DNA of 48,034 bases from a virus, in the IMG/VR virus record IMGVR_UViG_3300045012_000037, positions 1 through 48,034 of that record. One strand, given 5' to 3'. The position numbers and the translations under genes were made by a program. Shown piece after piece: positions 3,765 through 30,749 of this stretch. Under the pieces are notes generated by a model, which saw only the letters and a list, made by a program, of their open reading frames with translations, was not told the origin of the DNA and did not search any database. How positions within the stretch are numbered: the stretch's first letter is position 1; each line of letters begins with the position of its first letter.

Positions 3765-3765
3765 T

Positions 3766-15669: not shown

Positions 15670-18593
15670 TAGATTGTACTTTCTAATCCAGCCTCATGAA
15701 TGACGATCGGTCCCGGCGTATCTTTGATAATCGAGACGCGAGGATCGAATGAGCGACCCAGCGGGCGTGTCCGCTGGGCTTCCTCTCGCAAGGGCGGCGG
15801 CTGTGTCGGATCATCGCCCTGGTTCCAGGCTGTCCACCGTCGAAAGTTCATGATGGTTCCTAACACTGGCGATCTCGGCCGAAGCGGCCCTGAGAATAAG
15901 CGCGCCATCAGGAAGCCGGTTGAATTGGAAACATAGACGGCAAAACGCGCCACCCGGCGCGGAAACATGCGTTGATGCACGCTCTGGCCAGGTTGAGCAT
16001 CTGGCACGAACGGCTCGAGCGTCGCCGTCCAAGGCTGACCGGCAACCAGTGTCGAGAGCGTCAGGTTCTCGCCGTCGTTATTCTGCGGAATGATGAAGCC
16101 GTTGGCATCGACACTGTACGTGCCCATCATACGGTAGCCCTGATCCATCAGCGTCACGGTGCTGCTTGGGCCAGGAAATACATAGAGCGGACCTTTGCCG
16201 CCTGGCGGCGCAAACGGCGCCGGCAGACTGTTCACCAAAAGCGCACTATCGAGATATTGTGTAGCATCTAGCTTCTCGACAACGCTGGTTCCGACGAGTG
16301 TAGCAGTCGGGTTTATCGTGACAGCAGCGCCGGCCGTACCAAGAGCACCGAGCCATGTCAGTTGATCGCCGTTGGTATTGGGACCGGGAGCATTGGTAGA
16401 TGTCCAAAAATTAATGCCCCCTACGCCAGTAAACGGATTGGCGGTAGGCGATCCATTCCACAATCCACCATTAACCTGAAACCAGGCCAGCGCATTTGTT
16501 GCGTCGAACACCACGCCAATGACAGCCGATGAGGTTGAGCCAAGATTAATACCTGTATCAGTAGCAACCGCAAGCAGCACCCAAATTTCTCCGGTGCCGT
16601 CGATGGCAATTCCATTCTTTCCCGAGGTAAGATCAATGACTACTATGCCATCGCCGGCGCCGGTAGCGAGGTTAACCGGCGCAGAGAAGTTGGCATTAGT
16701 TGTAAACGTAAGAAAATAAATCCCGTTAGTGTGGCTAATGGTAGTGATGCTCCCCGCCAGCGGATATCCGGTTCTGGTTATAGTGAGATTTCCGTTTGAA
16801 TAGGCGGTAGTCGATGTGAGGATAGCCGGATTCCAGGTTCCTCCCCACGAAGTATTGATTTGGCCGCCGTAACCCGTTGTAAAAATAACGTCACCACCCT
16901 GCGCAGAAACCCACGTCGGCTTGCCGACGCCATTCCAGGGTAGCCAGCCGATCTTGGGCTTACCATCAACTCCAACATCAAGTAGGCCGTTGCGGACCGC
17001 ATATTTGCCGATAATACAGTTTCCATTGGCCAACAAAATGTAGGCATACATTTCCTCGAACTGCCCCGGCGCGCTCGGCGCCGCAATAGCAATCGCGGGC
17101 GAGGCCGTGAACAGATGCGAGTGAAATTCCGATACGTTGTCGACAATGTAGGGTCGATAATACGCGCCCGGTGCCTGTACCGCGCCGACCTGCGTGCCGC
17201 CGGCCTTCATGTAGAGAATCGATTGCTGCGCCGGCTGCGGCCGCACGTTCGGCATGCTGCCTTGTTCGCTCAATAGATTAAACGCGACAGAGCCGGGCAC
17301 TAGCGGATTGGCTGGCGTGATCGGAATGTAATAGACGGCGTTGTCGCAGAAAACAAACTCAGATGATTCCATGCCGGGCTGCACAAACAGCACTTGCGAT
17401 TTGCCGGGCGCGAGTTCAAAGATCGCATTGGCAGGCAGCGCGGCAACGTAGAAATCGAGGAATAGCCCGATTGCCGACCATCCAATGCCGGACGGCACGG
17501 ACGGAAAGTTGTTTAATATAAGCCGGTTTTGATCGAAGGACACCGATGTCGGATAGCCACGAAACAGGTTCATTACCTCGTCGTCCCACAACGACACCGC
17601 AAACGGGCCGCCGGGTGGATTGCTCGTAAGAGTGATCGCATAACTCGGCCCGACTGCAACCTCATTTGCCGCAAATGCGATAACGTGGCCTCCGTCGTTT
17701 TGAATCAATTGCACATCTATGCCGGTGCCCCCGCCGACAAGGGCGGTTACAATTCCTTCTGCGCCGCTCGTTTCGCCGATGATCACATCGCCGACGCTGA
17801 CGACGCCGGTTACATTGGCTGCCACGCCCAATGCTTGACCGGGATAAAGCGGCTCCTCGACTGTCGCGGTGCCATATTGCGACGGGCCGGCTGTTGGTGT
17901 GGTAAAATTAGATAACGTAACCGCGGTAATCAAAATCTGCCGATTGATGAATCGCATTCTTGTGCCGATCATGCCAGAGACCAGAACCGGCGATGAAAAC
18001 GTAATGTCGATGTTTCCCGACGTGGCGCTCGGCAGCATGGTGATGTTCTGCGGCGAGATGCGATAGAACAGCGTGCGCTTCTGGCCGCCTGGCGTGATAG
18101 TTTCGGCGAAGGTCGTCAGCGTCCACGTCGAAGTTTGCGATACGCCGTCCCAAGCCAAAACTTGCGGCACATTCACCGGGGCATCGTCGCCGTAGCAGAT
18201 ATAGATTGCACGTTGCGAGCCGGCGGCAACGACAAAGGTGACGTTCTTGACCGTTGCCGTCGTCCACGGAATATTGGTCGAGCCATCGCCTTTGAGCGTC
18301 GAGGTAAAAACCTGCGTGCCGGCGGCGTTGTAAACGCTCAATGAGCCGGCGCCAAATACCAGAAAGAAGATATTGCCCGGCGACATTAGGACTTCTTCGA
18401 CGCGGCCGGCTGCGGGGAATAGCGCGCTGCGGCCCGGTCGATTGGTTGCGGCACCACTATTGAGAATGCGCCAGTTGGAAGCCTGCCGCGCGCCGATCTT
18501 CATCAGCGGGTTTTCGTCGGCACGCTTCATCGCCACATCGAGCTCGCCGCCCGAAAAGTCTCGCTGTGCGCCGGTGATCTTCGCAATTGCCAT
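15669..18593 (-). CDS. tail tubular protein B (T7 gp12-like nozzle) with internal SPRY-like insertion
   Basis: N-terminus ...FSGGELD...GARQASNWRILNSGAATNRPG parallels T7 gp12 (KGGISQQP...QVNGW...GLQKRPP). 974 aa. The insertion contains YSNGNLTITR...ALAWFQVNGGLWNG. Confidence 0.75.
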   Translation of the reverse strand: MAIAKITGAQRDFSGGELDVAMKRADENPLMKIGARQASNWRILNSGAATNRPGRSALFPAAGRVEEVLMSPGNIFFLVFGAGSLSVYNAAGTQVFTSTLKGDGSTNIPWTTATVKNVTFVVAAGSQRAIYICYGDDAPVNVPQVLAWDGVSQTSTWTLTTFAETITPGGQKRTLFYRISPQNITMLPSATSGNIDITFSSPVLVSGMIGTRMRFINRQILITAVTLSNFTTPTAGPSQYGTATVEEPLYPGQALGVAANVTGVVSVGDVIIGETSGAEGIVTALVGGGTGIDVQLIQNDGGHVIAFAANEVAVGPSYAITLTSNPPGGPFAVSLWDDEVMNLFRGYPTSVSFDQNRLILNNFPSVPSGIGWSAIGLFLDFYVAALPANAIFELAPGKSQVLFVQPGMESSEFVFCDNAVYYIPITPANPLVPGSVAFNLLSEQGSMPNVRPQPAQQSILYMKAGGTQVGAVQAPGAYYRPYIVDNVSEFHSHLFTASPAIAIAAPSAPGQFEEMYAYILLANGNCIIGKYAVRNGLLDVGVDGKPKIGWLPWNGVGKPTWVSAQGGDVIFTTGYGGQINTSWGGTWNPAILTSTTAYSNGNLTITRTGYPLAGSITTISHTNGIYFLTFTTNANFSAPVNLATGAGDGIVVIDLTSGKNGIAIDGTGEIWVLLAVATDTGINLGSTSSAVIGVVFDATNALAWFQVNGGLWNGSPTANPFTGVGGINFWTSTNAPGPNTNGDQLTWLGALGTAGAAVTINPTATLVGTSVVEKLDATQYLDSALLVNSLPAPFAPPGGKGPLYVFPGPSSTVTLMDQGYRMMGTYSVDANGFIIPQNNDGENLTLSTLVAGQPWTATLEPFVPDAQPGQSVHQRMFPRRVARFAVYVSNSTGFLMARLFSGPLRPRSPVLGTIMNFRRWTAWNQGDDPTQPPPLREEAQRTRPLGRSFDPRVSIIKDTPGPIVIHEAGLESTI

Positions 18594-18602
18594 GGGCTAT
18601 GC

Positions 18603-19349
18603 CTAGCCCGGAGGACCGCCTGGGCCGCCCCAACCGCCGATACCTGTCCGCGGCCATGGGCGGCGTATCAGGCGGGACGCGCTGATGCGCGGGTTGAAGA
18701 ACTGCCGTTTGGGCAATTGCTGGTCGTAGCGCGTGCGGGCCATTTGCAGCATGCGCTCGCCGGCCATCCACATCTTGTCGCCTTCGGCCGGATCCTCGTG
18801 CAGCCCGCGATAGATGCCGGACATGGTAAAGGACTGCAGGGCAAGGAGCAGCGTCGGCGTGCCGTTGGTGGAGTCGCACAGCGCCCCGGAATTGGAGATG
18901 TATTTGAGCGTGATGGCGGCCGGGATGGTCGGCGGGACGGTCACGGGCGGCGGGGGCGGGCCGCCAAGCGCATTGACCACAATCACAGGGCCGGTCGGCG
19001 TCCCCATGATACGGTAGAGCGTGAACTGATTGGTCTGGACGTTCTGCGGGTCCGTCGTATCCTGATTGATCTTGAGCCAGATGATATGCACGCAGTCGGC
19101 CGGGATTGGATAGGCTGTGTCGTAATCGGTATCCTGCGGCGGGGTCGGGCTCGGCTGCAGCGTCACAACCAGGGCGGCATAGCCCCAGCCGTGGCTTTCC
19201 ATGGCGAAGCCGAGGCCGCGGTCATAGGCCGGCGAGGCTACGTTCCACTCGTCCGAACCGTCATCGGCCACGTTGACGAAGTTGTCCCCGGTTGCAGCCA
19301 GGGCAGAGTTAATCAGGCTCAGCTTGTCGAGTGGCGCCGGGAATGCCAT
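18603..19349 (-). CDS. tail tubular protein A (T7 gp11-like adaptor)
   Basis: Directly upstream of the gp12-like gene. INSALAATGDNFVNVA parallels T7 gp11 NEMLSAVGESPVNTL. Confidence 0.65.
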   Translation of the reverse strand: MAFPAPLDKLSLINSALAATGDNFVNVADDGSDEWNVASPAYDRGLGFAMESHGWGYAALVVTLQPSPTPPQDTDYDTAYPIPADCVHIIWLKINQDTTDPQNVQTNQFTLYRIMGTPTGPVIVVNALGGPPPPPVTVPPTIPAAITLKYISNSGALCDSTNGTPTLLLALQSFTMSGIYRGLHEDPAEGDKMWMAGERMLQMARTRYDQQLPKRQFFNPRISASRLIRRPWPRTGIGGWGGPGGPPG

Positions 19350-19376
19350 GCTCGACGGTGCGCTGGGGTCGCCAAA

Positions 19377-19393
19377 GCGCGCAACGCACGGTC
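19377..19393. promoter_or_regulatory. conserved late-arm motif copy 2 (GCGCGCAACGCACGGTC)
   Basis: In the 58-bp divergent spacer between tubular A (ATG 19349) and the methyltransferase moron (ATG 19408). Confidence 0.6.
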
Positions 19394-19407
19394 AGGAAAG
19401 CCGCCAA

Positions 19408-20064
19408 ATGCTCAGAAGCGCCCTCAAAGCGATGATTCCCGAGCCCGTTCTAACGAAATTACGGAACGTCAAACTAGCATTCACGCCACATGATAAAATC
19501 TATAATGAACACTATTTTGAAGAAGAAGTTATAGATACCTCAAGTATCGGAGCGCCCATTATGTCCAGCACGCTCTACGATTGGAGGCGCCCAAAAACGG
19601 TCATCGACATTGGATGCGGAAGCGGGGCACTACTCGCTGCATTTCGCGAATTAGGCTGCGAGGTAGAGGGCTTTGAATACGCCAACGTAGGACTAGCCTA
19701 TTGCCGAGGTCGGAAAATACCCACGGAGAAATTCGACATTTCTGTCGATAGATTTCCTCAACGTCGAGCTGACCTGGTTGTAAGTTTCGAGGTTGCCGAA
19801 CACTTGGCGCCACGATACGCAGACCGATACGTTGAGCTGCTTTGTTCGATGTCAGCGGATATTGCCATGTCTGCTGCAACGCCAGGACAAGGCGGTACTG
19901 GGCATATCAACGAGCAGCCGCATTCATATTGGATCGAGAAGTTCAGGCAACGCGGCTACTTTTTCCTAGCCGATATTTCGCAGAAATTATCCCAGGAATG
20001 GTGCGACGCTAACATTGCATCGTGGTACTGCAATAACGTGATGGTCTTTTCTCCGCGATCTTAA
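19408..20064 (+). CDS. class I SAM-dependent methyltransferase (non-DNA type), opposite-strand moron
   Basis: Motif I VIDIGCGSGALLAAFRELGCEVEGFEY, then VVSFEVAEHL and GHINEQPHSYWIEKFRQRGY. GGAAAG lies 7 nt before ATG 19408. The track start at 19273 would overlap the tubular A gene. AT-richer than its surroundings. Confidence 0.75.
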   Translation: MLRSALKAMIPEPVLTKLRNVKLAFTPHDKIYNEHYFEEEVIDTSSIGAPIMSSTLYDWRRPKTVIDIGCGSGALLAAFRELGCEVEGFEYANVGLAYCRGRKIPTEKFDISVDRFPQRRADLVVSFEVAEHLAPRYADRYVELLCSMSADIAMSAATPGQGGTGHINEQPHSYWIEKFRQRGYFFLADISQKLSQEWCDANIASWYCNNVMVFSPRS

Positions 20065-22907
20065 GGTATGACCTCGATAATAAGTTGGTCAGCGGCAATC
20101 GAGAGCGGCACGGAGCTTACGCTCGAATAGGTATTGATGGGCGTACTCTGCACTTGCGGATCATACACATTCACAGTGGTCTCGGTGGCAGCTAACGTCA
20201 GGGTAGCCGAAGTGGTCGGCGGCGTCACGTCAGAGCCATTCCACACGCTGGGTTCGTTCCAGACGCAAATGAAAAAATGGCCGTTGGACTTCTGCAGCAA
20301 AAGAGCCTGAGCGCCGAAATTGTTAAGCGCATTTGAGTGCGCCGGGAATGGAGAGATAGAATAAGTAAGCGAGCCGGGCGTGAACGCGCCACCAGTATCG
20401 GTCAGAATGGTCACTAGGTTCTTGATCGAGGTCGCGGCAGTCTTGGGATTATTATTATAATCAAACAGCCCGTAGTGGTGGAAAGATACAGTATCTGAGC
20501 TGTTGGCTTCATCGATCAGCTCGTACATATAAGTATATTTCGACCCGACAACGACATACATATCGAACAGGTCGTTCAATTGCAGCAGTGATTGCGCCAG
20601 TTGCGAAATGCCGCCTGTGGCGGGCACCGTGTAATAACCAGTCTCGGTCACTGCTTGCGGCAGACCGGCAATATCGCTTGCGGGGCCGGCGACCCAACCC
20701 GGCTGCTCGCCCTGATTGGGGTAGTAATGCTGATTGTTGTAGTCGGCAGTACCGGTGACACCGTATGATGGAAAGTCGGTGAAGTTAATCACCGGGACGC
20801 CGGTCAGATGCGAGTCACCATGGGTCTTGTTATAAATGTCCTGCTGCCAAGCGATAGCGGGCGCTGGATTGTTGTAGAAAGCTATGAATCGCGTCGCATC
20901 GCCGTTGCCAACGCCGGCCCCCTGGACGTTCGACGCCATCGTGACAGAGGTTGAGGCGATGGTGCTTAAGGTGGTGACCGGCGCGATCGGAAACACTGCG
21001 CCAGAGGTCAGCACCACGGCGTCAGCAATCCCCGCCTGCGCTGTGCCGACCGTGTTTGGCCCCAACGGAACCGAAAGGCTGCTTTGTGTGCTGGTAAACG
21101 GTTGAATCTCGACCAGATCGCCATCGTTGCCCCAGAGATTAGAGACAAAATCGCCTGTCACACCAGCAATGGTGCCAGCAACGGACACGAAGTTCTGAGC
21201 AGCCTGTGAACTATTGTTGCCCGTCTGCCGATAGCACCCGATGACAACCGTATTGGCGTGGGTCGTCGTAATCGTCAGCGGATCGGAAGTGCCGGTAACT
21301 GCACTGCCGTCGAAAGCGCCCGTGCTTCCGATCACACCGAAAGCATCAATGACCAGTGACGCGCTCGAAGTCTGCGAAACCGTAATGGTATCAGTTCGTG
21401 GATAGGAGCCACCGACTGGTCCCGTCGCGGTCCATTCCTCAAGATCGGTTGCTCCCGATGACGCGCTGGCCCGCTTTGCCCAACTTAAACTCTGGGTGTC
21501 CGTAATAGTAGTGACGGGTCCGCCGCTCGCCGCTGTGCAGATCAGCAATTTTTCGGCACTATTGTTGATCGTAAGTACAACATTCTGCGATGTAGCAGGA
21601 GAGGACGCCGCAGCGTGAGCATTGCCGGAATCAATGATAGTCGGTAGCAGCGTCAGGTCAGAGACTATTACCTGATTGACAAAGAATGGCGCATAAGACT
21701 GACAGCACGCATTGATCGCTTGCAACGCCGGAAGCGTCGAGGCGTAGTGCAGGGTAGCATTGCCAGAGGCAGTTGTGTTGTTCGTGACCGGCGAATTGAC
21801 GTAGCAGGACGGATTGTTGTTCAGCTCGTTGATGCCTTCGGCCGACGCCATCGCGCCGGGGTAAGTCGTAACAAAGGTGTCAATCAAGCCGTAAAGCGTA
21901 GTCAGTGTCGCAGCCGGACTTGGTGAGCAACCGCCAACGTGCTGTGATGCGATGTCAAAATCGAACTTATATCCCGCCGCCGCCAGGGTGTTGTAAACTG
22001 ACTGAGCTGGGTTGAGTGTGTCCAACCCATAGTCTCGGATCAGGCCGATCCCGAGATAGGCCATATCGGTCTGTATATTCGCTTCCGTGTAGATTGGATT
22101 GCCCTGAGTGATGTGCGTATTTGCACCCAGAGAAGCAATGAATGGCTGTGCCTTGACGGCGTTCGGATTGAATACATAAGGCTGATTGCCGCCGCCGTTG
22201 CCGGGGTTGGTCCAATTGGCAAACCCCGATGGAGCAACATCGGCATATGCCGTTGCGCCAAAATTTGCTGTTAATTGAACGCCCGAGATATTGTGAACGG
22301 AGGCCATGACAAAATATGGCCCGGCATTAAGTGCCGCAATCGACACGCCACACCCTGCATTAGCCGGCGTACAACCGCCCGTATTATTCCAGTTACCGCC
22401 ATGAACGCGAAACCATGCCAGCTTGTTAGTCAGGTCAACAGCCAGACCGGCCGTTTGACCGACCGTCATGGTCTGCTGCGCAGGGCCAACTTGAGCAGAA
22501 TTAAGAACGATACCACCACTATCGTACTCGCCAATACTGTTGTTTGAATCAACGCCCAATTCCTCGGCGGCATTGGCATTGCCGATACCAAAAATGACCT
22601 GACTAGTGCAACCGGAGACGCAACTGCCAATCGAGTTAAAGGTGAATTCGTTGTAGAACTGTCCTGTTAAGTTATTTGCCACCGAGCGGGTGACAAAATA
22701 TCCGGGGTTGCCGCTGCCTAGTGACGTTGAAGTAAGATTTCCGTTGGAAAGAACTGTCAGCGGGTCAGTTTGGCTAGGATCGAAGGTTGTTGTTACTGTG
22801 CCACTGGGTATTTTGCCGTGATCCCAGCCACACAGAAGGACCAGTGCAATGGAACCGATTGCGATATTTTTGCTTAACAAGCGGCCGGAGTGGAATGGAA
22901 ATATCAC
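20061..22907 (-). CDS. large exported/anchored protein: SPRY-like lectin domain plus possible TIM-barrel glycosidase region plus beta-rich C-terminus
   Basis: GTGA start/stop overlap at 22904-22907. N-terminus MIFPFHSGRLLSKNIAIGSIALVLLCG. SPRY pattern LSNGNLTSTS...GQFYNEFTF...LAVDLTNKLAWFRVHGGNWNN...LTANFGATAY. The later AEGINELNN is a clan GH-A-like NE motif (weak). Confidence 0.75.
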   Translation of the reverse strand: MIFPFHSGRLLSKNIAIGSIALVLLCGWDHGKIPSGTVTTTFDPSQTDPLTVLSNGNLTSTSLGSGNPGYFVTRSVANNLTGQFYNEFTFNSIGSCVSGCTSQVIFGIGNANAAEELGVDSNNSIGEYDSGGIVLNSAQVGPAQQTMTVGQTAGLAVDLTNKLAWFRVHGGNWNNTGGCTPANAGCGVSIAALNAGPYFVMASVHNISGVQLTANFGATAYADVAPSGFANWTNPGNGGGNQPYVFNPNAVKAQPFIASLGANTHITQGNPIYTEANIQTDMAYLGIGLIRDYGLDTLNPAQSVYNTLAAAGYKFDFDIASQHVGGCSPSPAATLTTLYGLIDTFVTTYPGAMASAEGINELNNNPSCYVNSPVTNNTTASGNATLHYASTLPALQAINACCQSYAPFFVNQVIVSDLTLLPTIIDSGNAHAAASSPATSQNVVLTINNSAEKLLICTAASGGPVTTITDTQSLSWAKRASASSGATDLEEWTATGPVGGSYPRTDTITVSQTSSASLVIDAFGVIGSTGAFDGSAVTGTSDPLTITTTHANTVVIGCYRQTGNNSSQAAQNFVSVAGTIAGVTGDFVSNLWGNDGDLVEIQPFTSTQSSLSVPLGPNTVGTAQAGIADAVVLTSGAVFPIAPVTTLSTIASTSVTMASNVQGAGVGNGDATRFIAFYNNPAPAIAWQQDIYNKTHGDSHLTGVPVINFTDFPSYGVTGTADYNNQHYYPNQGEQPGWVAGPASDIAGLPQAVTETGYYTVPATGGISQLAQSLLQLNDLFDMYVVVGSKYTYMYELIDEANSSDTVSFHHYGLFDYNNNPKTAATSIKNLVTILTDTGGAFTPGSLTYSISPFPAHSNALNNFGAQALLLQKSNGHFFICVWNEPSVWNGSDVTPPTTSATLTLAATETTVNVYDPQVQSTPINTYSSVSSVPLSIAADQLIIEVIP

Positions 22908-23779
22908 GTCCACACTCCGATGTAGTCCCATGATACGGGAATGCCGTCTCCTGGTGACATTATCAACATACTATGATTCGCGTCTGATGCCGCCCCATTG
23001 CTGCCAGTCGCATAGCTAAGAGCAGCGCCGGTCTGTTCCGCCCCATCGAGGTAACGCTTTATAACGCCATTCGTGGCGCCATTGGCCGGCAACCAGAGCG
23101 CTCCATACTTGTGAAAATTTGAATCTGAAATTCCGGTAATATTCCCGTTATTAAGCACCGAGGTCGTTGCCGAATTGAAAAAATGATCCTCCATTATTTG
23201 CGACTGACCTAGGTAATATTCATAACCATCGACCTCAACTAGAGAGGCGGCTCCGATTAAACTTTCGATCGCCAATAGCCACACGATAGGCCACGCAGAA
23301 GCGTCGGCATTGCTCGGCGTAAATGCCATACTCCATTCGACATACATCGGCGGCGTAAAGCCTTGTCCGACGTAAGACGATCCCGCGGCCTGGGCCGTCT
23401 GGACAAACAATTCGGATGTCGCACCAGTGCTATTGCTTAATGTAACTACCGAGTTGCTGACGCTTATGCTTGCTGGATTAGTGCTATGACCGGAAGTTGG
23501 AATTAGCGGCGCGGACCCCCCGTACGGATTCATTATATTCGGCCATGCATTATTCAGATACCAGTTGTAGCCCGGGTTGCCGGTCTTGCTTAGATCAAAG
23601 GTATTGCTCGTCAAAAAGTGGTCGAAAAACACGATTGTGGATAACCCGTTAGCTGCGGCAATGGCTGGGATCGGAAGAATGCCATGTGAAAATGCATTTG
23701 CTGGGCTCACACCGCTACGAGGCAACCACAATGCGGGAGCGGCCAAACTCGCACGAAGAAGATTTCTTCGAGTGATCAC
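22904..23779 (-). CDS. GH16-like (ConA-fold) glycoside hydrolase with twin-arginine signal peptide
   Basis: GTG start abutting the upstream stop. Signal MITRRNLLRASLAAPALWLPRSGVSPANA/F. WPIVWLL and EVDGYE match the GH16 WPAFWxL and ExDxxE signatures. Confidence 0.7.
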   Translation of the reverse strand: MITRRNLLRASLAAPALWLPRSGVSPANAFSHGILPIPAIAAANGLSTIVFFDHFLTSNTFDLSKTGNPGYNWYLNNAWPNIMNPYGGSAPLIPTSGHSTNPASISVSNSVVTLSNSTGATSELFVQTAQAAGSSYVGQGFTPPMYVEWSMAFTPSNADASAWPIVWLLAIESLIGAASLVEVDGYEYYLGQSQIMEDHFFNSATTSVLNNGNITGISDSNFHKYGALWLPANGATNGVIKRYLDGAEQTGAALSYATGSNGAASDANHSMLIMSPGDGIPVSWDYIGVWT

Positions 23780-24469
23780 TTACCAATTTCCAAATCCAGC
23801 GGGGGCTGCATAGGTATAAGAGGTTGCGCCAAAGTTTGCCGTTATGGAGGCGACGGCGTTGTGAATGCAGGCGGCGGCGAAATATGGGGCCGAGCCCGCA
23901 GAAGAAATTGATACGCCGCCGGCCCCCGTTGCCGGATTTGCTGTGCCGCTACCGTTCCAATTGCCGCCATTCTTTCTTATCCACACCAACCCTCCACCAA
24001 TATCGAGCGCCTGATCTATCACGTCGCCGTTGGTAAAAGTAGCATCAGTAAGGAGCGAGACGTTGTTGATGTATCCGTGTGAGTCGTCCCAATAGCCGAA
24101 ACCATTAATATCGACGCCGCCAAGAAACACATTAAGAGACTCTGATGAATTTACAAAACCAATGCCGTTGGAGTAAGAGGCAAAGCCGTTGCTGGTGTTA
24201 ATCAAAAAAGAAGCAAATAACTTTCCAGTAGAATGCGATGTGATAGAGCGAGAAAAACTATAGGTCCCAGAGCCGTTGGCTGTAATAGTTAAGTTTCCAC
24301 CAGACAGTGTAATGGTATTTCCAGTGTTGGACGGATCGAATGTCGTAGTACCGCCGCCGCCACTAGGCGCTACGATCGAACTGCCGACGCCGGTCTGCGT
24401 CAGGTCTTGTGCGTGCAGGACACACAGCAGCCCAACCAGAAACAGGCCAGCGGCAATCACCCGCTGCAT
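23780..24469 (-). CDS. secreted SPRY-like lectin-domain protein
   Basis: Signal MQRVIAAGLFLVGLLCVLHA/Q. LSGGNLTITANG...GKLFASFLIN...GLVWIRKNGGNWNGSGTANP...ITANFGATSYTYAAPAGFGNW, paralogous to the N-domain of 20061-22907. Confidence 0.75.
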   Translation of the reverse strand: MQRVIAAGLFLVGLLCVLHAQDLTQTGVGSSIVAPSGGGGTTTFDPSNTGNTITLSGGNLTITANGSGTYSFSRSITSHSTGKLFASFLINTSNGFASYSNGIGFVNSSESLNVFLGGVDINGFGYWDDSHGYINNVSLLTDATFTNGDVIDQALDIGGGLVWIRKNGGNWNGSGTANPATGAGGVSISSAGSAPYFAAACIHNAVASITANFGATSYTYAAPAGFGNW

Positions 24470-25302
24470 CAGTTATATCCGAATGTGCAGTTGATCGTGT
24501 TCGTTGCCGGTGCGGCCGCCCCCTTTGGCGTCGTGGTAGCCGCCGCACTCATCGCCGTGCCAAACTGCATGCCCTGCAGGTTCATCACAAAGCCGTTCGA
24601 CAGGCTTGGGGCGATCGGGATGACTTGCAGCGGCACCGTGGTTCCAACCGTGACCGACCCAAACGCCACGTTGAAAATCTGAATGTAGGTCCAGGCGGCA
24701 TTGTTGTTGTCGCATTGTGCGAAGCCGAGTTGACCGCCCGACGACTTGATCGCCTGTGCCGCATTGGTCAGAGCCGTTACCAACAGCGGCGTCCAGCCGC
24801 CTGTTGTGCCGAGTGGCGGCGGGCTGTTAATTGCGTTTGCCGCGGCCTTGGCGATCGCGGTCAACGTACAGGCTGTCGCAGTAGCCGGCAATGTGCAGGG
24901 CGAATCTGTTGTCGATCCCTCAACCGTGTTGGAGCCGTTGGCGATAGAGATTGCCGCTGTGTTTGTGATGAATACATTGGCGCCTGGAACGAGTACGGCC
25001 CCAGGTGACGTGCCGTAATTTGCCATCGCTCCGAGCGTGCCACCAGCCCATGTCGTATTCCAAAGCGCGGCAGAAGCCGGATCGACAAGTTGACCATGCG
25101 ACGTGTCGACACCGGCGCCGTTTGCGCCGGCCGAATAATCCCAGATCGTATTTTTGCCCAGGCAATTGCCGCTGCCGTCGACCACAGTGCCGATATTCTG
25201 AGATGTGCCGCCCGCATCCTTGCCAGTGATTGGCGAAGGACAAGCGGCAAATGCCGGCCAGCAAAGCAGCGTGAAGCCGAGCGCAAGGAGAATGCGCCTC
25301 AT
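24469..25302 (-). CDS. secreted or lipoprotein-type T/G/A/N-rich protein
   Basis: ATGA overlap with the upstream stop. MRRILLALGFTLLCWPAFAA/CPSP is a possible lipobox or an AxA site. Six Cys after the hydrophobic core. Confidence 0.7.
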   Translation of the reverse strand: MRRILLALGFTLLCWPAFAACPSPITGKDAGGTSQNIGTVVDGSGNCLGKNTIWDYSAGANGAGVDTSHGQLVDPASAALWNTTWAGGTLGAMANYGTSPGAVLVPGANVFITNTAAISIANGSNTVEGSTTDSPCTLPATATACTLTAIAKAAANAINSPPPLGTTGGWTPLLVTALTNAAQAIKSSGGQLGFAQCDNNNAAWTYIQIFNVAFGSVTVGTTVPLQVIPIAPSLSNGFVMNLQGMQFGTAMSAAATTTPKGAAAPATNTINCTFGYN

Positions 25303-25511
25303 GGAATTACTCCATTGATGAATTGCGGCATGTTGCAGCCGGTGGAGAGAGACAGATCGATTGCCCCTGCAGTGCATGGCGTGCCGACGATGACCGTCCC
25401 GCCGCCGCCGGACCCGCCGCCGATGCCCTGATTGCCGCCGATCGATTGTGCGAGTGCATGCGCTGTCCAGACTGACGCGGCAAACAATGCGAATGCGATG
25501 GCCCAGTTCAT
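25299..25511 (-). CDS. 70-aa secreted Gly-rich peptide precursor
   Basis: MNWAIAFALFAASVWTAHA/LAQSIGGNQGIGGGSGGGGTVIVGTPCTAGAIDLSLSTGCNMPQFINGVIP, with two Cys. Confidence 0.65.
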   Translation of the reverse strand: MNWAIAFALFAASVWTAHALAQSIGGNQGIGGGSGGGGTVIVGTPCTAGAIDLSLSTGCNMPQFINGVIP

Positions 25512-25512
25512 G

Positions 25513-26007
25513 TCAATTCTGATGCGTTTGTACAGTCGTTTCCAGATTGACCGCCGTGCAGGTTCCTGCCGTCATGGCAAATGCCACATAATCGCCGGCG
25601 GTGATCGCAGCCGAGTTGACCGTGCCGTCGACTACGGTTCCGGCTGCAGCAACGGTCACAGTTCCGATTGTGACGGGGCTCGATGCGCAAGTTGTCGACG
25701 TGCCGCACTCGAACACCGTTATGGTTGGATTGACCGAACACGTAAACGTGTTGGCGCTGCCCTCGATGTTGTCGACAGTCGTCGCCTTGCTGAATTTGTG
25801 AAACGCGCTTTTCGTGGCATTGATCGCCGTGATCGGACCGGTCTGAAAGCCGATGTGGTCGGTGGCGTTGTTGGCAATCGTTCCGCCCGAGCAGGTCAGA
25901 CCGGCGCCGCAGCCGAACAGGGCGCCATTGGAAATGCCGTCCGCAGCCAGCGGAGTGACCAAAGCCAGCAATGCGAGTGGGGCGATAATCCTACTGATAA
26001 TCTGCAT
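25513..26007 (-). CDS. secreted Cys-containing beta-rich protein
   Basis: Internal ATG 26007 of track ORF 25513-26160. MQIISRIIAPLALLALVTPLAA/DG. Six Cys in the mature part. Confidence 0.65.
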   Translation of the reverse strand: MQIISRIIAPLALLALVTPLAADGISNGALFGCGAGLTCSGGTIANNATDHIGFQTGPITAINATKSAFHKFSKATTVDNIEGSANTFTCSVNPTITVFECGTSTTCASSPVTIGTVTVAAAGTVVDGTVNSAAITAGDYVAFAMTAGTCTAVNLETTVQTHQN

Positions 26008-26368
26008 ACATCGTGTCCGAATTTGAGGCGCACGTCGCCTGGATGACATCGGACGGAACGTATGGGTAATAGCGCTGGTAGCTGCCGCCCGGAGACAACA
26101 AAATGGATGTTGCCTTTGTCGCGCTGCCAGATCCGATGAACAGCCAGCAATTGTCGCCATTGGTATTGTTGTTCTGGATAGTCAGCGAGCGCCTGATAGC
26201 CGGCGGCGCGGCAACAGCACTGAGTATGTTCTGATATGTGTTGCCGGTCGTGATCGTAACTGAGCCATTGATGGTTGGCGTATTGGTCTGCGCGTTCGCG
26301 ACAGGCGCAAAGAAAAGCGCTGCGGCGATAACCGCAGCGCGAGTTAGCCATGATCGATTCGCAATCAC
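25991..26368 (-). CDS. secreted beta-rich protein
   Basis: GTG 26368 preceded by GGTGGA and located after the stop of the upstream gene. (M)IANRSWLTRAAVIAAALFFAPVANA/QT. Two Cys. Confidence 0.6.
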   Translation of the reverse strand: MIANRSWLTRAAVIAAALFFAPVANAQTNTPTINGSVTITTGNTYQNILSAVAAPPAIRRSLTIQNNNTNGDNCWLFIGSGSATKATSILLSPGGSYQRYYPYVPSDVIQATCASNSDTMYADYQ

Positions 26369-26388
26369 AGCGGGAGGTTCCACCTGGC

Positions 26389-27006
26389 TTAGAAGTACGA
26401 GTAGATTATCGTGATATTGATCGAGCCCGAATTGCACGCGGTATGGCACGCGACAAGCACCTGATCCGCAATCGGCGCACCGCCATTGACTTGCAGCCGC
26501 GTCAGCGACGCATCCTTCACGACAACAGTTGCGTTGGCGCCGAGCGCGACCGCCGAGGCAAAAGTCGTGGCCGACGTGGCATCGCCGATGTCGACGCCGC
26601 CAGTGATGGCGTTGCCTGCCGTCTCGGCAAGCACAACGTTCTGAATGACCGTATTGGCCGGCAGCGTGATCGTCGATGTCGTTGACGTGGTTGACGCCAG
26701 GATGCCGGTCTGGATCAGCGTGAAGATATTTGGGCCGTAGAAGTAGCCTTGCGACAGGAAGTAGCCGACATCGCCGGAAGCGATAACCGCACAGCCATCA
26801 GCGTTGAGCTGATAGGCGGGCTGAGGCGTAGCCGTAGACGCCGAGTTGACAACACGCCTCGGTCCAGCGACGCCGGATGCTGGCTTAGGCGCGCACAAGA
26901 AGGCGTGAGCGGTCTGGGTCGACGCCGCCGCATAAGCGCCCTGCGGCACGATGAAGAAGGCGGCAATCGCTGCGGCGAGCAGGAATTGCGGAAGGCGAAA
27001 CTTCAT
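26389..27006 (-). CDS. secreted protein, possible small outer-membrane beta-barrel
   Basis: MKFRLPQFLLAAAIAAFFIVPQGAYA/A. Four Cys. C-terminus SINITIIYSYF has alternating hydrophobics and a terminal Phe (BAM beta-signal-like). Confidence 0.7.
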   Translation of the reverse strand: MKFRLPQFLLAAAIAAFFIVPQGAYAAASTQTAHAFLCAPKPASGVAGPRRVVNSASTATPQPAYQLNADGCAVIASGDVGYFLSQGYFYGPNIFTLIQTGILASTTSTTSTITLPANTVIQNVVLAETAGNAITGGVDIGDATSATTFASAVALGANATVVVKDASLTRLQVNGGAPIADQVLVACHTACNSGSINITIIYSYF

Positions 27007-27506
27007 GGTCTTGTCTCCTGTTCACCAAAGACGGGATCGGCACGCATCGCCGCGGCCAGATCGGCATTGGCCTCGATTTCGCGACGCATGTTTTCGGCGT
27101 GGCCGTGGCCTGGCGTGACGCCAACCGGCAGGCCGCGATTTTTCAGCTTCTCGTAACCGCGCGTGCGACTCGAGATCACGTAGCGTTTCGGGTCGCGGGT
27201 CAGCGCGTCATTGGCGTCGGCCGACCACATGAACAGTTCGATCGGGCCGCCTGAGCGCTTTTCAAACTCGGCATAGTCGACCTTGGCCTGCTTATGCGCC
27301 TTGAGCGCGGTCGCATAGTCCTCCATGGCCTCGCGAAATTCCAACATGGCCAGATCGTACTCCGGCTCACCTTCGCTGCCCTTTGGCGCCTTCGGACGCA
27401 TCGGCGGCTCGGGCTTCTTCGGCCCGAGATCCCACAGCCACACCTTCATCGCCGCATTGTCGGTGGCGTTGTTGCTGTTGATGCGCGTAAAGGCGAGATC
27501 GCTCAT
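27003..27506 (-). CDS. hypothetical protein (head-proximal)
   Basis: 167-aa ORF. ATGA overlaps on both sides. Charged, soluble-looking. Confidence 0.7.
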   Translation of the reverse strand: MSDLAFTRINSNNATDNAAMKVWLWDLGPKKPEPPMRPKAPKGSEGEPEYDLAMLEFREAMEDYATALKAHKQAKVDYAEFEKRSGGPIELFMWSADANDALTRDPKRYVISSRTRGYEKLKNRGLPVGVTPGHGHAENMRREIEANADLAAAMRADPVFGEQETRP

Positions 27507-27988
27507 GCCGCGTCTTTCTTGTCTTTCTCAACTTTTGCCGTGGCCCGCTTGGCGGCCATGACGCGCGCGATGGCGATCTTGCGGTCGGCGGCGAGTTGGA
27601 TGGCGGCGGCCGCCTTGGCGCGATCCTCTTGGATCTTCTTGACCTCGGCATCGACCGCGGACTCATCGAGATCCTGCGGTTCCATCGCATAGCGCTCGTC
27701 GGCGGCGATGGCGTGCGCCGCGTCGCTCGAGTGCATGGTCAGCGGGTCCGGCGCGATGTGGGTTTCGTGCCACAGTTTTGCATCGGCCTCGGCAGCATCA
27801 GAACGTACTTTCAACGCCTCGTCGGTTTCGCCGGGCTTCTTTTTCAGCGCCTTGCCGGTGCCGGGACCATGATCCCACACGATGACATTGCCGTTCGCGT
27901 CAAGGTCAGAAGCGATGACGGCGCGGCGGTGCTTCTTCTCGGCCTTGGTTTCGGTAGGACCGCCAAACAATGGATCAGCCATGGTCAT
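27503..27988 (-). CDS. hypothetical charged protein
   Basis: ATGA overlap with the upstream stop at 27985-27988. GAGGGA RBS. Product MTMADPLFGGPTETKAEKK... (track ORF 27503-28249 starts too far upstream). Confidence 0.65.
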   Translation of the reverse strand: MTMADPLFGGPTETKAEKKHRRAVIASDLDANGNVIVWDHGPGTGKALKKKPGETDEALKVRSDAAEADAKLWHETHIAPDPLTMHSSDAAHAIAADERYAMEPQDLDESAVDAEVKKIQEDRAKAAAAIQLAADRKIAIARVMAAKRATAKVEKDKKDAA

Positions 27989-28503
27989 TCCCTCGGAAGT
28001 ACGGCGATGAACGCCCGGAACGTGATTGAGCCGAACGTGCCCGCCACATAGAGCTGGACGAACTGATATTTGACGTTGTTCTGCTCGTTGGTGAACAGCA
28101 TTTCGTAACGCGATCCGCCGATCGAAGCCGGTGCGGCTGTATTGAATCCGTTGATCCAATCGACGTTGGCGAGCTCGCCGAGCTGATATTCGGCGAGAAG
28201 CTGGACGTTGCCGGCGCCAAACGCCGGATCGTTCGAACCGACCAGACACAGCTTGTAAACGTCCGATCCTGAAACGGTGATCGCGGTAACGTCGACCACG
28301 CAGGCCGCGTCGATGCGCGGTTGCTGCGGCGTGATTGATGTCGAGTCCGCGATCGACGGCAGCGTAACCGTAGCGCCCTGGTTGCCGCCGAGATCGACGA
28401 CGCCGGTAGCGCCGGCGTTCTGGGCGTAACCCGCGGCGGTCTGCGCAACAGAGCCGTCCGAGAGAACGTTGTTGGCGTCGAAACTATAAGTTCTGTCACC
28501 CAT
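27985..28503 (-). CDS. hypothetical protein directly downstream of capsid gene (possible decoration/cement protein)
   Basis: 172-aa ORF, 21 nt after the capsid stop. Function guessed from position only. Confidence 0.7.
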   Translation of the reverse strand: MGDRTYSFDANNVLSDGSVAQTAAGYAQNAGATGVVDLGGNQGATVTLPSIADSTSITPQQPRIDAACVVDVTAITVSGSDVYKLCLVGSNDPAFGAGNVQLLAEYQLGELANVDWINGFNTAAPASIGGSRYEMLFTNEQNNVKYQFVQLYVAGTFGSITFRAFIAVLPRE

Positions 28504-28524: not shown

Positions 28525-29478
28525 TTAGGCGACGATCGGCGCGTTAGTCCACGAGTCCATGCGGCCGAGACAATACTTGTGCTCGTCCACCAAACCGATG
28601 TCCCAACTGATATGCGTGCGATAGGTCTTGCGGTCCTGCAGCAAGCCAACATCTTCCGGCGTCAGGTTGCGGACATAGATGCCGCGCAACATGCCCTCGC
28701 CCATGGTCAGGCCGTAGAGCGACGCGGTGACGGCCGAGCCGCCGCCGTTGCCGACCTCGTTGAATTGCAGCACCGGCTGCTGGTCGTCCTTCGGATAGCC
28801 CCAGAGCAAACGAAGCCCGGCATAGCTGATCTTCGGCATGCCGACCTCATCCCAGGTCTGCATCACGAAGCCACTCAAGGTCGTGGTGCGCGCCGCCTGA
28901 ATCCACAGCGGCAGCGAAATGAACGGCACGAAGATGTAGGTGGTACCGGACTTGCGCGAGATGTTGTTGAGGAACTGATCGAGATTGGCGAGCGAAAGCG
29001 CAGCGCCGCCAGATGTCGTCGAGTTGTGATAGAGCCGGCCGAACTTGCGGGCCCGGACTTGCAGGCCGTTGAACACGCGCGGATTGGTCGATTGGTCGCC
29101 CTTGACGAAAGTGTCGATCCACAGCCGCGCAAAGGCGGTGATGCCCATGCGTTCCTCGTAATTGCGCCGCTCCGAGCCGTGCCGATCCTGAATGGCGCGG
29201 TCCACGTCGATGTCGTGGTCGATGATGTAGGTCGCCTCGTCGAACGGCGTGATCGAGCCGTGGCCGCTTGAGGATGCTTCGTTGATGCCGCGGAACTGCG
29301 GCGTCGGCAGCACGGACTCGCGGAAGCCGACATATTTGGAACCGCGCAAGCCTTCAAAGGGCATGACCTCGAAAACGTCACTGTACTGCGTGAACATTTC
29401 GATGATGGTGCGTCGGATGTCCTCATTCGAGAACCCCTTGGCGTATTCGGTCAGGGTAATCAGATTGTTGACAGCCAT
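28525..29478 (-). CDS. major capsid protein
   Basis: 317 aa, follows the scaffold gene in portal-scaffold-capsid order. GAAGGG RBS. The long antisense ORF 28516-29271 is rejected. Confidence 0.7.
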   Translation of the reverse strand: MAVNNLITLTEYAKGFSNEDIRRTIIEMFTQYSDVFEVMPFEGLRGSKYVGFRESVLPTPQFRGINEASSSGHGSITPFDEATYIIDHDIDVDRAIQDRHGSERRNYEERMGITAFARLWIDTFVKGDQSTNPRVFNGLQVRARKFGRLYHNSTTSGGAALSLANLDQFLNNISRKSGTTYIFVPFISLPLWIQAARTTTLSGFVMQTWDEVGMPKISYAGLRLLWGYPKDDQQPVLQFNEVGNGGGSAVTASLYGLTMGEGMLRGIYVRNLTPEDVGLLQDRKTYRTHISWDIGLVDEHKYCLGRMDSWTNAPIVA

Positions 29479-29491: not shown

Positions 29492-29707
29492 CTATGGATT
29501 GCTTGCGCTAGGGGTGTAGGTCCACGCACCGAGCGCCGTATTCGGCGTACCCGCCGCATTGGTGCCCTTGATTGATCCCGTCGTCGTCGCGCCTTGGCCG
29601 CGCTGGATTTCCGCGGCGGCAATCTCACAAACTTTCGCCAAATAGCCTGCTTCGGCAGATTTCTTGTCGAACACCTGATCGACAATTGTGATGACCATGA
29701 CCGTCAT
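29492..29707 (-). CDS. 71-aa protein, tandem paralog 2
   Basis: MTVMVITIVDQVFDKKSAEAGYLAKV...AWTYTPSASNP. ATGA overlap with paralog 1. Confidence 0.65.
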   Translation of the reverse strand: MTVMVITIVDQVFDKKSAEAGYLAKVCEIAAAEIQRGQGATTTGSIKGTNAAGTPNTALGAWTYTPSASNP

Positions 29708-29919
29708 GGATTGCTCGCGCTCGGCGTATAAGTCCAAGACCCAAGCGATGTGTTCGGCGTTCCGGTCGCGCTGACGCCGTTCATCGTGCCTGACGTGACC
29801 GTGCCCTGCTTTTTCTGAATGTCAGAAGCGGCACGCAATAAAACCCTGGCGAGCCATTGGACCTCGGCTGACTTCTTGTCGAACACCTGATCGTTGATGG
29901 TAATGGTCAGCACGGTCAT
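29704..29919 (-). CDS. 71-aa protein, tandem paralog 1
   Basis: MTVLTITINDQVFDKKSAEVQWLARV...SWTYTPSASNP. 4-nt overlap with the scaffold gene stop. Confidence 0.65.
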   Translation of the reverse strand: MTVLTITINDQVFDKKSAEVQWLARVLLRAASDIQKKQGTVTSGTMNGVSATGTPNTSLGSWTYTPSASNP

Positions 29920-30749
29920 CGCTGCGCGCCGTTGAACTGCGTCTGATCAAAGCCGCGCGCATAGTCGAGGCGTTCGCGCGCCGACATTTTGGCAAACTGC
30001 TCGTCGCTGACACGACCCGGCGCTTGCGGCGGTTCGCGTCCGTTGGCGCGGAATGGCGCCCCGCCTTGGCTCGAGACTTTCTGAATCAGTTTCTCGGCGA
30101 TGGCGATGTCGCTCGCTGTGAACATGCGGGATGCGAGTTGTGAGCCCTCGGCCTCGCCGAGAAATGACTTGAAAAACGTGGTGACTGCGGTGACGCGGGC
30201 GGTGCCGTTGGCGCCGAGCTTGGAGACTTCGGCGGTGCGCGCGGCGGTAATGCGCGCCTGATCGGCGACCTGGGCGCCGGCATAGAGACCGAGCAACTTG
30301 GAGAATGCCTCCTGCCCGCTCACCTTGCCGGCATCGATGTCGTGCATGACCTGGCGGGCGAGCGCGAGATTCGGATCGGCGTCATTGAACTTGAAGTCGA
30401 CGCCGTCCGGCACCTTGAAGTCGGACGGCAGCTTGACCTCATATTTGTCGGGTGAATCCGGCAGCGCCAGCCGACGCACGTCATCAGCGGCGACGCGCGC
30501 CTGCAGCGCGCTGAAATGCTCACCAAATTCCTTGTCTTTGACTTTGCCGGCGGTTGCGTCCCAGAAGGTCTCGGGAACGTAAGCAGGCCGCGCGTTAGTT
30601 GGTGCTGCCGCTGGTGCCGGAGCCGGAGTTGGCGTCGGTGTCCCAGCCGGCGATGGCGGTGTCGAGGGTGACGCGGCGACGGGCGCCGCGGGGGTGGGTG
30701 CGGGTGTCGACGGGCTCGGCGATGGCGAAGGTGACGGCGTATCGGTCAC
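29916..30749 (-). CDS. putative scaffolding protein with P/S/T/A-rich N-terminal region
   Basis: Positioned between portal and capsid. Helical, charged C-terminal two thirds. GTG start. The first ~50 residues are PSPSPSPSPSTPAPTPAAP... and overlap the upstream ORF. Confidence 0.5.
   Translation of the reverse strand: MTDTPSPSPSPSPSTPAPTPAAPVAASPSTPPSPAGTPTPTPAPAPAAAPTNARPAYVPETFWDATAGKVKDKEFGEHFSALQARVAADDVRRLALPDSPDKYEVKLPSDFKVPDGVDFKFNDADPNLALARQVMHDIDAGKVSGQEAFSKLLGLYAGAQVADQARITAARTAEVSKLGANGTARVTAVTTFFKSFLGEAEGSQLASRMFTASDIAIAEKLIQKVSSQGGAPFRANGREPPQAPGRVSDEQFAKMSARERLDYARGFDQTQFNGAQR

Follow-up and report, generated by a model that had tools for sequence, protein, structure and literature searches.

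Single exported accessory proteins encoded in the late regions of phage genomes are well known, with lom, bor, Llp and Cor as examples. To our knowledge, the known phage depolymerases carry no signal peptides and are folded in the cytoplasm. An exported GH16 glycanase of bacterial origin is ExoK of the alphaproteobacterium Sinorhizobium, which trims the exopolysaccharide (EPS) of its own cell, and in T7 the T-phi terminator lies downstream of capsid gene 10 and ends the capsid unit. Here we describe a stretch of viral DNA of 48,034 nucleotides (IMG/VR record IMGVR_UViG_3300045012_000037, positions 1 to 48,034; the whole stretch is henceforth referred to as the window), in which eight consecutive minus-strand genes (20061-27006, named g1 to g8 in the direction of transcription) lie between the head and tail genes of a T7-type virion module. 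An earlier note on this DNA, drawn up from the letters alone, had proposed that all eight products are exported. Our analysis suggests that the block may be a hypervariable set of accessory genes for envelope-directed proteins that are exported, fold under oxidation and would bind surfaces and cut glycans, a reading of its function to which we give roughly even credence.

A hypervariable slot between head and tail genes

The eight open reading frames (ORFs) listed in the earlier note are all present (Table 1), and a codon model built from the conserved structural genes prefers each of them to every other frame, with the lowest support for g4 and g7. The junctions by which the genes had been described as chained are exact to the nucleotide: ATGA at 27003-27006, where the stop codon of the 167-aa head protein overlaps the start of g1, and again at 25299-25302, a 17-nt overlap at 25991-26007, TGATG at 24469, TAA-GTG at 23777-23782 and GTGA at 22904-22907. 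The assignment of the surroundings to a T7-type virion module was borne out by PHROG matches for the major head protein, the tail tubular proteins A and B (tubA and tubB) and the internal virion proteins.

We fetched 79 related viral loci through the capsid protein. The sequences of these relatives come from soil metagenomes, and presence counts given here refer to the viral locus set L001-L080. In the 42 loci that hold both genes, the distance from capsid gene to tubA ranges from 774 to 9699 bp (9176 bp in the window). The comparison of synteny that the earlier note had called for gave 0.8-1.1 kb for distant relatives and up to 9.7 kb for close ones. While g1 is present in 47 loci, g2-g8 are each found in 0-3 of the 80. 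Given this range of distances and this difference in presence, we therefore regard g2-g8 as cargo in a hot spot and g1 as a conserved core gene, as judged from gene content across the loci. The picture of a block wedged into the virion operon thus stands for g2-g8 and has to be given up for g1, which is a conserved gene of the head unit. Turnover in the slot is high, the 163 slot genes falling into 74 clusters. In distant relatives (capsid 47-58% identical) the slot holds one or two small genes and tubB measures 725-740 aa; tubB is ~240 aa shorter in relatives without the cargo array.

Part of the cargo also differs in composition. The GC content of g6-g8 is 0.51-0.54, and their GC at third codon positions (GC3) is 0.53-0.60 against 0.72-0.83 in the head genes. 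The AT-richness that had been reported for parts of the block therefore holds for g6-g8 and does not extend to g1, g4 and g5; the hand counts offered for it (22 G+C of 60 at 23101-23160, 41 of 60 at 10201-10260) were exact.

Comparable runs of genes were seen on other contigs. L138, which has a P22-type portal, carries a homolog of g8 within a run of at least eight Sec/Tat proteins (8292-20964), two of them with canonical RRxFLAG motifs. On the viral contig L119, five proteins in a row (447-1432 aa; 1706-12646) carry signals, among them a SPRY protein and a protein with the C-terminal domain of g5 (see below). Arrays of signal-bearing proteins are therefore not confined to one type of contig.

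Evidence for export and oxidative folding

N-termini were scored with a home-made rule that makes three demands: the n-region must contain K/R, an uncharged stretch must reach a Kyte-Doolittle mean of 2.0 or more over 8 residues, and the residues at -1 and -3 of a site 14-40 residues from the start must be small. Within the block, g1-g6 pass. The g8 signal, a hydrophobic segment ending LCG/W with a small residue at -1 and an aliphatic one at -3, passes if Leu is allowed at -3, and g7, of the twin-arginine type, fails on hydrophobicity. The export-type N-termini read by eye were thus largely recovered, but the lipobox type that had been suggested alongside them was not, since the pattern [LVI][ASTVI][GAS]C is broken in g8 (VLLC, with L at -1) and in g5 (FAAC, with F at -3). 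The same rule rejects the terminase, portal, scaffold, capsid, the two post-capsid proteins, tubA, tubB and the three internal virion proteins; outside the block it picks the genes at 7131-9002, 4915-5736 and 4509-4910.

Signal-like N-termini are concentrated in the slot beyond chance. Across 47 related loci, 88 of 163 slot genes are signal-peptide-like compared with 36 of 636 same-strand genes outside the slot (Fisher p 2e-42), a large contrast obtained with crude gene calling and partly redundant loci. Cysteine parity follows the same division. Of the 65 non-redundant signal-bearing slot proteins, 57 have an even, non-zero number of cysteines in the mature part, 6 an odd number and 2 none (binomial p 2e-11), against 19 even, 20 odd and 24 zero among slot proteins without signal and 137, 199 and 152 among genes outside the slot. 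In the block, the counts of 4, 2, 6, 2 and 6 given earlier for g1-g5 are correct for the mature parts, and g6, g7 and g8 have 1, 0 and 11.

The division is repeated within single domains. The C197/C272 pair of the g5 C-terminal domain is invariant in exported copies and absent at both positions in all 12 of the signal-less copies compared. Likewise, C-x3-C and C-x6-C loops are found in the SPRY domains of g8 and its homolog P0003 and are absent from the signal-less SPRY homologs P0005-P0012.

The earlier note had considered that close relatives might encode homologs without hydrophobic N-termini. Instead, the signal is retained in homologs of g1, g5, g7 and g8 even as its sequence changes. This is clearest for g1, where the AxA site and the mature N-terminus AAS(T)TQ following it are conserved, C38/C72 is invariant, and among 54 aligned homologs mean pairwise identity is 29% in the signal region (with indels) and 53% in the mature part. 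K/R, hydrophobic core and small -1/-3 residues are nevertheless kept in 52 of the 54, and all 30 called copies of g1 are signal-like. A signal peptide stands at the start of 20 of 22 fetched members of the g5 family, in which the lipobox-like Cys is not kept throughout. In the full-length g8 homologs P0003 and P0004 the N-terminus is again signal-like, and the W-x-H-G motif of g8 comes after it.

For g7 the route would be a different one. Its N-terminus (TRRNLL...ANA/F) scores 15.6 bits with the Pfam TAT_signal model, below the cut-off of 22.7. Among the 8 homologs that extend far enough N-terminally to cover the motif, 6 keep both arginines, one has RK and one a single R, and the RR region is nearly identical across the family (SRRNLLRASLAAPALWLP) even at 37% overall identity. 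That g7 has no cysteines fits export as an already folded Tat substrate. The public JGI call of this gene, of 268 aa, starts downstream of the twin-arginine motif; the alignment of homologs supports the 291-aa form.

Taken together, the enrichment in the slot, the conservation of signals that drift in sequence, the RR motif of g7, cysteine parity and the domain-level cysteine contrast in g5 and SPRY support the N-termini as genuine Sec/Tat export signals, and actual translocation and cleavage are what such features would predict. The Thr/Ser/Gly/Asn/Ala-rich beta character noted earlier for the mature parts was confirmed (5-8% charged residues), and such fibre-like sequence, together with some domains common to virion proteins, could also be expected of cytoplasmic virion proteins whose hydrophobic N-termini serve as uncleaved anchors or oligomerisation helices. 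We find this extremely improbable: the small -1/-3 residues and the adjoining mature N-termini are conserved, as is the twin-arginine motif; parity is even in signal-bearing proteins, with the cysteine pairs of the g5 C-terminal domain and of SPRY specific to signal-bearing copies; and a positive n-region followed by a hydrophobic core would go to Sec anyway. Among the three roles proposed in the earlier note (glycan or envelope remodelling, superinfection exclusion, virion proteins with uncleaved anchors), the first thus fits best and the last fits worst because the AxA sites are conserved.

A further observation concerns the residues directly after the predicted cleavage site, where several otherwise unrelated large Sec/Tat array proteins share the motif [W/F]-x-H-G (Table 1). 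It might be a sorting or docking motif.

The core gene g1 and the end of the head unit

The g1 family comprises 114 homologs, all of ~200 aa. Structural modelling, another check proposed at the outset, was useful here: the AF2 model of g1 is a jelly-roll of fair confidence (pLDDT 82). Its best fold matches, all weak, are the capsid cement proteins of Pam1, GP4 and KHP30 and a baseplate protein; many small phage proteins and domains of tail-fibre and structural proteins are also weakly matched. The idea that g1 might be an exported paralog of the 172-aa head protein was dropped (hhalign probability 0.4%), and that head protein (27985-28503) itself matched no PHROG or Pfam family.

A terminator-like hairpin follows g1 and overlaps the signal-coding part of g2. 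The 96-nt region around it folds at -40.3 kcal/mol (z -4.3). Of 42 distinct relatives, 25 have an equivalent hairpin with T-run no farther than 95 nt from the g1 stop; the figure is 13 of 646 for other gene ends (p 3e-25) and 4 of 63 for positions after the capsid gene. In relatives without cargo the hairpin is intergenic and stands just ahead of tubA; its distance from the g1 stop is ~26 nt in L026 and ~32 nt in L004. In the window, L002 and L003, the letters of the hairpin also encode the Ala/Leu/Phe-rich signal peptide of the gene that follows. We considered whether such hairpins could be a general by-product of coding for Ala/Phe-rich signals and rejected this, as only 3 of 40 other signal-coding 5' regions have one and the hairpin is non-coding in relatives without the array. 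From its conservation we therefore take the head unit to end after g1 at this terminator-like hairpin, with the cargo placed between terminator and tail genes. By its position, g1 can ride on the capsid message, and g2-g8 and the tail genes would need read-through or an undetected promoter. The proposal that all eight genes are carried by the message from the capsid gene is accordingly retained for g1 and, for g2-g8, only by way of read-through. Predicted promoters and terminators of the block's own showed no excess over shuffled sequences, in a scan that covers alphaproteobacterial promoters poorly. A SAM-dependent methyltransferase gene stands on the opposite strand between g8 and tubA, convergent with g8 so that the two stop codons overlap; late transcription toward tubA must therefore run antisense through it.

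The arrangement invites comparison with lysogenic-conversion morons, genes expressed from the prophage and not as part of the late operon, which would alter the surface of the lysogen for phage exclusion or host fitness. Two features by which morons are recognised are found here, the insertion of a block between genes adjacent in related phages and a composition in which g6-g8 (with their lower GC3) differ from their neighbours and g1 does not. In addition, the phage is temperate (see below), the array may be insulated from head transcription by the terminator, the slots of relatives contain Wzy_C-type genes, and the window has the opposite-strand methyltransferase and an outer-membrane-protein-like gene. 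Morons are defined as independent transcription units that spread by horizontal transfer (PMC3594210). But the block has no promoter-like site above chance, its genes are overlap-chained in late-operon orientation with no internal terminator, and the downstream tail genes must be transcribed through it. We consider it unlikely that the array is of this kind, and the idea overlaps with that of an envelope-directed exported array and does not exclude it.

Products of the array

Scans of the eight products against Pfam, PHROG and NCBIfam matched almost nothing, and they gave no match to exclusion or defence families, no dedicated defence search (PADLOC) having been run. DNA and protein searches among isolated phages found no relative of the block, of g1 or of the g5 domain. 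Homologs of g2 occur in L028 and L139, and g3 has none in the viral loci L001-L080. Two candidate relationships to L002 genes were rejected: the similarity of g4 to a small protein is a motif-level resemblance only and not significant, nor is that of g3 to the positionally equivalent gene. The genes g2, g3 and g4 remain orphans.

For the C-terminal domain of g5 (24472-24855) there is no Pfam or PHROG model, and its family comprises 2056 clusters at 50% identity (E<=1e-3). Members (P0141-P0289) range from 125 to 1166 aa and nearly all are signal-bearing; in many there are long internal repeats (…LPLPTGAATSA…, …WAGGTLGAMANYGTSPGAVLVPG…). On other viral contigs the domain is found at the C-terminal end of proteins of ~300-840 aa without signal, which lie in long same-strand gene runs where the surroundings are readable; in L124 such a protein is encoded 2.7 kb downstream of the major head protein.

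A SPRY-like domain links g6 and g8 to the tail nozzle. The single domain of g6 resembles residues 39-232 of g8 at 40% identity (E 5e-32) and an insertion in tubB (residues 586-736, 16386-16838) at 34% (E 1e-11), and it also matches an annotated tail fiber of Burkholderia phage AH2. Neither g6, g8 nor the tubB insertion has a Pfam match at E 0.1; the homologs P0005 and P0010 carry PF00622, and the model of the g8 N-terminal domain matches solved SPRY domains (E 2e-8, TM 0.6-0.74 on target). Outside this domain the AF2 model of g8 is unreliable (mean pLDDT 45), so that modelling was of use for the SPRY part only. The module recurs in tail fibres and is also present in signal-less metagenomic proteins together with collagen repeats, GDSL or BNR domains.

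The g7 sequence of the window alone has no Pfam match for GH16. However, the residues E182/D184/E187 (ExDxxE) are invariant in 12 sequences, the homolog P0130 carries PF00722, and the family profile matches solved GH16 beta-1,3- and beta-1,3(4)-glucanases (best E 2e-7). It was the only profile to match in sequence searches of solved structures, which returned nothing for g7 and g8 as single sequences, the spike-like protein described below, the g5-domain profile or the profile of the 172-aa head protein. On motif and profile evidence, g7 is a Tat-type GH16 glycanase, with predicted hydrolytic activity. Among 44 signal-bearing slot proteins of relatives, a Pfam census found ArabFuran-catal in 2, Wzy_C (O-antigen ligase/polymerase type) in 2, Gly_rich_2 in 2 and Beta_helix in 1, and no domain in the others.

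Enzymes of this sort could also be auxiliary genes for carbon acquisition, secreted to degrade environmental polysaccharides for the host. GH16 here, the arabinofuranosidase-like and beta-helix domains of relatives and the origin from soil metagenomes speak for this, as does the report of signal peptides on ~5% of soil prophage CAZymes (PMC13507307). Yet only one of the eight products is a recognisable CAZyme, the rest being mostly binding modules, some of them related to phage virion proteins; 74 clusters among 163 genes resemble a surface arms race and not metabolism, and Sec or Tat alone releases no enzyme from a diderm cell. We therefore judge a role in carbon supply very unlikely and continue to favour products directed at the envelope.

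A spike-like protein with a signal peptide

Downstream of the internal virion protein genes, the gene at 7131-9002 encodes a signal-bearing protein that starts MKPLRRTIAAIGLLWTALSPLAAIAQA/PP. Residues 13-202 are 44-56% identical in L089, L090, L020, L077, L024 and L018 and the C-terminal parts are unrelated; signal and mature N-terminus are conserved in the family, and in four relatives (L018, L020, L024 and L077) the homolog sits in the slot between capsid gene and tubA. As far as sequence comparison tells, the protein is modular in the way of a tail spike, with a conserved N-terminal anchor and an exchangeable C-terminal part. No Pfam match to the Phage_T7_tail docking domain was obtained for it or for the block proteins, and its N-terminal domain has no relative among isolated phages.

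A spike-like protein with a signal raises the possibility that virion appendages (this protein, perhaps g1, g6, g8 and others) are exported, folded in the periplasm with disulfides, and dock on fibre-less particles at lysis. The protein is modular like a tail spike and is encoded in the gp17 position or near tail genes, and no other fibre or spike candidate was found in the window; g1 is conserved, lies within the head unit upstream of the terminator and has weak fold matches to cement proteins and tail fibres; and SPRY modules are common to the nozzle and an annotated tail fiber. Decoration proteins and P22-type tailspikes, moreover, can join particles in vitro. Against this, dilution upon lysis would make assembly inefficient, the spike N-domain matches no known docking domain (Pfam, isolated phages), the SPRY insertion of the nozzle could itself bind the receptor, and g2-g8 are too variable and too numerous to be all structural. 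We know of no tailed phage that adds exported appendages after lysis, and in the literature we found no description of phage Sec/Tat protein arrays or of signal-bearing tail fibres. On balance, post-lysis docking of appendages seems to us rather unlikely. Its fullest form is more doubtful still, namely that a lineage of tailed phages completes its particles outside the cytoplasm, the spike, possibly the capsid-binding jelly-roll protein and others attaching at lysis, and the array being a set of interchangeable extracytoplasmic receptor-binding proteins.

Table 1. Position of the features discussed in the text, with family matches where obtained.
Feature	Position	Strand	Description	Match
Large terminase	33345-34850	-	late region	
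Portal	30957-32585	-	late region	
Scaffold	29916-30749	-	late region	
Major capsid protein	28525-29478	-	upstream border of head unit	phrog_212, E 9e-42
172-aa protein	27985-28503	-	conserved head-unit protein without signal peptide, found in 67 loci	
167-aa protein	27003-27506	-	conserved head-unit protein without signal peptide, found in 54 loci	
g1	26389-27006	-	conserved, predicted exported jelly-roll protein, 4 Cys, last head-unit gene	
Terminator-like hairpin	26307-26340	-	10-bp GC-rich stem, UUUUCUUUG tail, 47 nt after g1 stop	
g2	25991-26368	-	125 aa, Sec-type signal, 2 Cys	weak phrog_22789 match
g3	25513-26007	-	164 aa, Sec-type signal, 6 Cys, orphan	
g4	25299-25511	-	70 aa, Sec-type signal, glycine-rich, 2 Cys, weakest gene call	
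g5	24469-25302	-	277 aa, signal peptide AFA/AC, 6 Cys, C-terminal domain of ~120 aa	
g6	23780-24469	-	229 aa, signal peptide and single SPRY-like domain	phrog_10080
g7	22904-23779	-	291 aa, twin-arginine signal and GH16-type glycoside hydrolase, no Cys	
g8	20061-22907	-	948 aa, signal (…LLCG/WDHG), SPRY domain, ~700 aa of unassigned fold	
Methyltransferase	19408-20064 (ORF open from 19273)	+	SAM-dependent, sugar-cluster type	PF13489, E 2e-12
tubA	18603-19349	-	tail tubular protein A, downstream border of slot	phrog_394, E 2e-12
tubB	15669-18593	-	tail tubular protein B, nozzle	phrog_376
Internal virion proteins	15190-15669, 13079-15190, 9090-13079	-	one with transglycosylase domain	PHROG
Spike-like protein	7131-9002	-	623 aa, signal peptide, 12 Cys, T7 gp17 position	
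Outer-membrane-protein-like gene	4915-5736	-	273 aa, signal …ALPAFA/ADMPV, C-terminal …YIRYDF	
DNA methyltransferase	44287-45183	+		phrog_56
Tyrosine integrase	46529-47902	+		phrog_1
[W/F]-x-H-G sites	g7 residues 30-33, g8 residues 28-31; L003 17011, L064 11991		also in P0003, P0004, P0130, P0136	

The phage and its host

The window is a complete contig. It has a tyrosine integrase and a DNA methyltransferase, from which we take the element to be temperate, and no ORF in it is large enough for a T7-type RNA polymerase. By its gene content, the phage is a temperate podophage that has a virion module of the T7 type and lacks a phage RNA polymerase. Relatives of the capsid in metagenome-assembled genomes (MAGs) and genomes are mostly from Hyphomicrobiales (Roseiarcus, Methylocystaceae, Bosea), and more distant ones are prophages in isolate genomes of Microvirga and Gellertiella; the host is probably a member of the Hyphomicrobiales. 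The closest isolate by capsid, Microcystis phage Mwe-JY08 (48%), was tried for comparison and set aside, as it is not syntenic and uninformative.

Among the lysis genes lies the gene at 4915-5736, with a homolog in L089 (15440-16222). Its product looks, from its predicted signal and C-terminus, like an outer-membrane beta-barrel, and matched no NCBIfam or Pfam family. Between the scaffold and capsid genes there are two small tandem paralogous genes (29492-29737 and 29704-29919, minus strand; 81 and 71 aa), both products of which end …WTYTPSASNP; L018 has a single copy, after the capsid gene.

Proposed function of the array

We propose that a recombination hot spot between the terminator after g1 and tubA holds a swappable array, the products of which would be made as precursors together with g1 and exported, seven through Sec and g7 through Tat in already folded form. 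Signals would then be cleaved, and the Sec substrates would fold in the periplasm, probably with disulfide bonds; proteins that have passed this compartment would be stabilised by disulfides and fit for conditions outside the cell. The mature proteins may be binding modules (SPRY in g6 and g8, the jelly-roll of g1, the g5 C-terminal domain) and glycan cutters (GH16 in g7), to which the arrays of relatives add beta-helix and arabinofuranosidase-like domains. Export is expected late in infection and possibly also in the lysogen. Targets could be polysaccharides of the host envelope or surface receptors, reached within the periplasm and, once the cell has lysed, on debris and in the neighbouring matrix. 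Destruction or masking of receptors and matrix would mean that fewer progeny are lost on debris and that the infected or lysogenic cell is shielded from re-infection, and turnover of the array content would fit an arms race over a variable surface.

Several points weigh against this proposal. The ligands of SPRY domains in solved structures are peptides and not sugars, so that glycan binding by g6 and g8 is an assumption. Most array proteins have no recognisable catalytic domain, and g7 is the only enzyme that could be called in the window. In Gram-negative cells Sec and Tat export reaches the periplasm only, and action at the surface or outside the cell would therefore need lysis or another secretion step. 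That no promoter signal was found in the block counts here too, as does the fact that the window ORFs include no signal-less spike or fibre candidate, which is awkward if none of the exported proteins joins the virion. Export is argued from sequence features and their conservation, the nearest relatives of the phage come from metagenomes only, and two MAG labels (Salinibacterium and Terracidiphilus) conflict with a host in Hyphomicrobiales.

If the products do act on the host surface, these loci would offer a large and so far unused stock of binders and glycanases directed at the envelope, and a new route to receptor destruction or exclusion. A widespread family of temperate podophages from soil maintains a hot spot dedicated to up to about ten exported, probably disulfide-bonded proteins, and the family of the g5 C-terminal domain, which no Pfam or PHROG model covers, alone has ~2,000 clusters. 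The signal peptide on the sole spike-like protein raises the question of whether a tailed phage can add parts that have passed through the periplasm.

Comparison with known systems

The closest likeness is to the late-operon morons (lambda lom and bor; PMC3594210), with which the array shares insertion between structural genes that adjoin each other in relatives, atypical composition, exported envelope products and a temperate phage. It differs from them in consisting of eight chained genes in which no promoters or terminators of their own were detected, in occupying one fixed hot spot behind a conserved terminator, anchored by the conserved, predicted exported core gene g1, and in containing some modules that also occur in phage virion proteins. 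In T5 Llp and phi80/N15 Cor (PMC9586334), as proposed here, a signal-bearing phage protein works within the envelope against the receptor that its phage uses, so that the infected cell is protected and progeny are not wasted on debris, benefits that would apply to the array by analogy. There is, however, no sequence or domain similarity between these proteins and the array, and in those phages a single small lipoprotein blocks a receptor that is itself a protein, whereas the array has many large proteins of soluble type, with SPRY, jelly-roll and GH16 modules and no clear lipobox.

Phage depolymerases and tailspikes resemble the array in their beta-helix, GH-type and lectin-like modules aimed at capsule, EPS or O-antigen, and the spike-like gene in its modular N-terminal anchor and variable C-terminal part. 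In contrast to them, every candidate here has a Sec or Tat signal, most with paired cysteines. ExoK may be likened to g7 as an exported GH16 enzyme; g7 differs in being phage-encoded, of Tat type and distant from solved GH16 enzymes. As with T-phi of T7, a hairpin resembling an intrinsic terminator ends the head unit and the tail genes lie behind it, but there is no phage RNA polymerase here, and the hairpin stands three genes past the capsid gene and overlaps the signal-coding part of g2. Soil temperate phages with glycoside hydrolases, a minority with signal peptides, have been described (PMC13507307); those signals are on 5% of scattered single genes, and here they are predicted on all eight genes of one array, mostly non-CAZymes. 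Set against these systems, what we did not find described in the literature is a fixed hot spot with long chains of apparently exported, cysteine-paired proteins, some of them built of tail-fibre modules, the conserved exported core gene that anchors it, and a signal-bearing spike-like protein.

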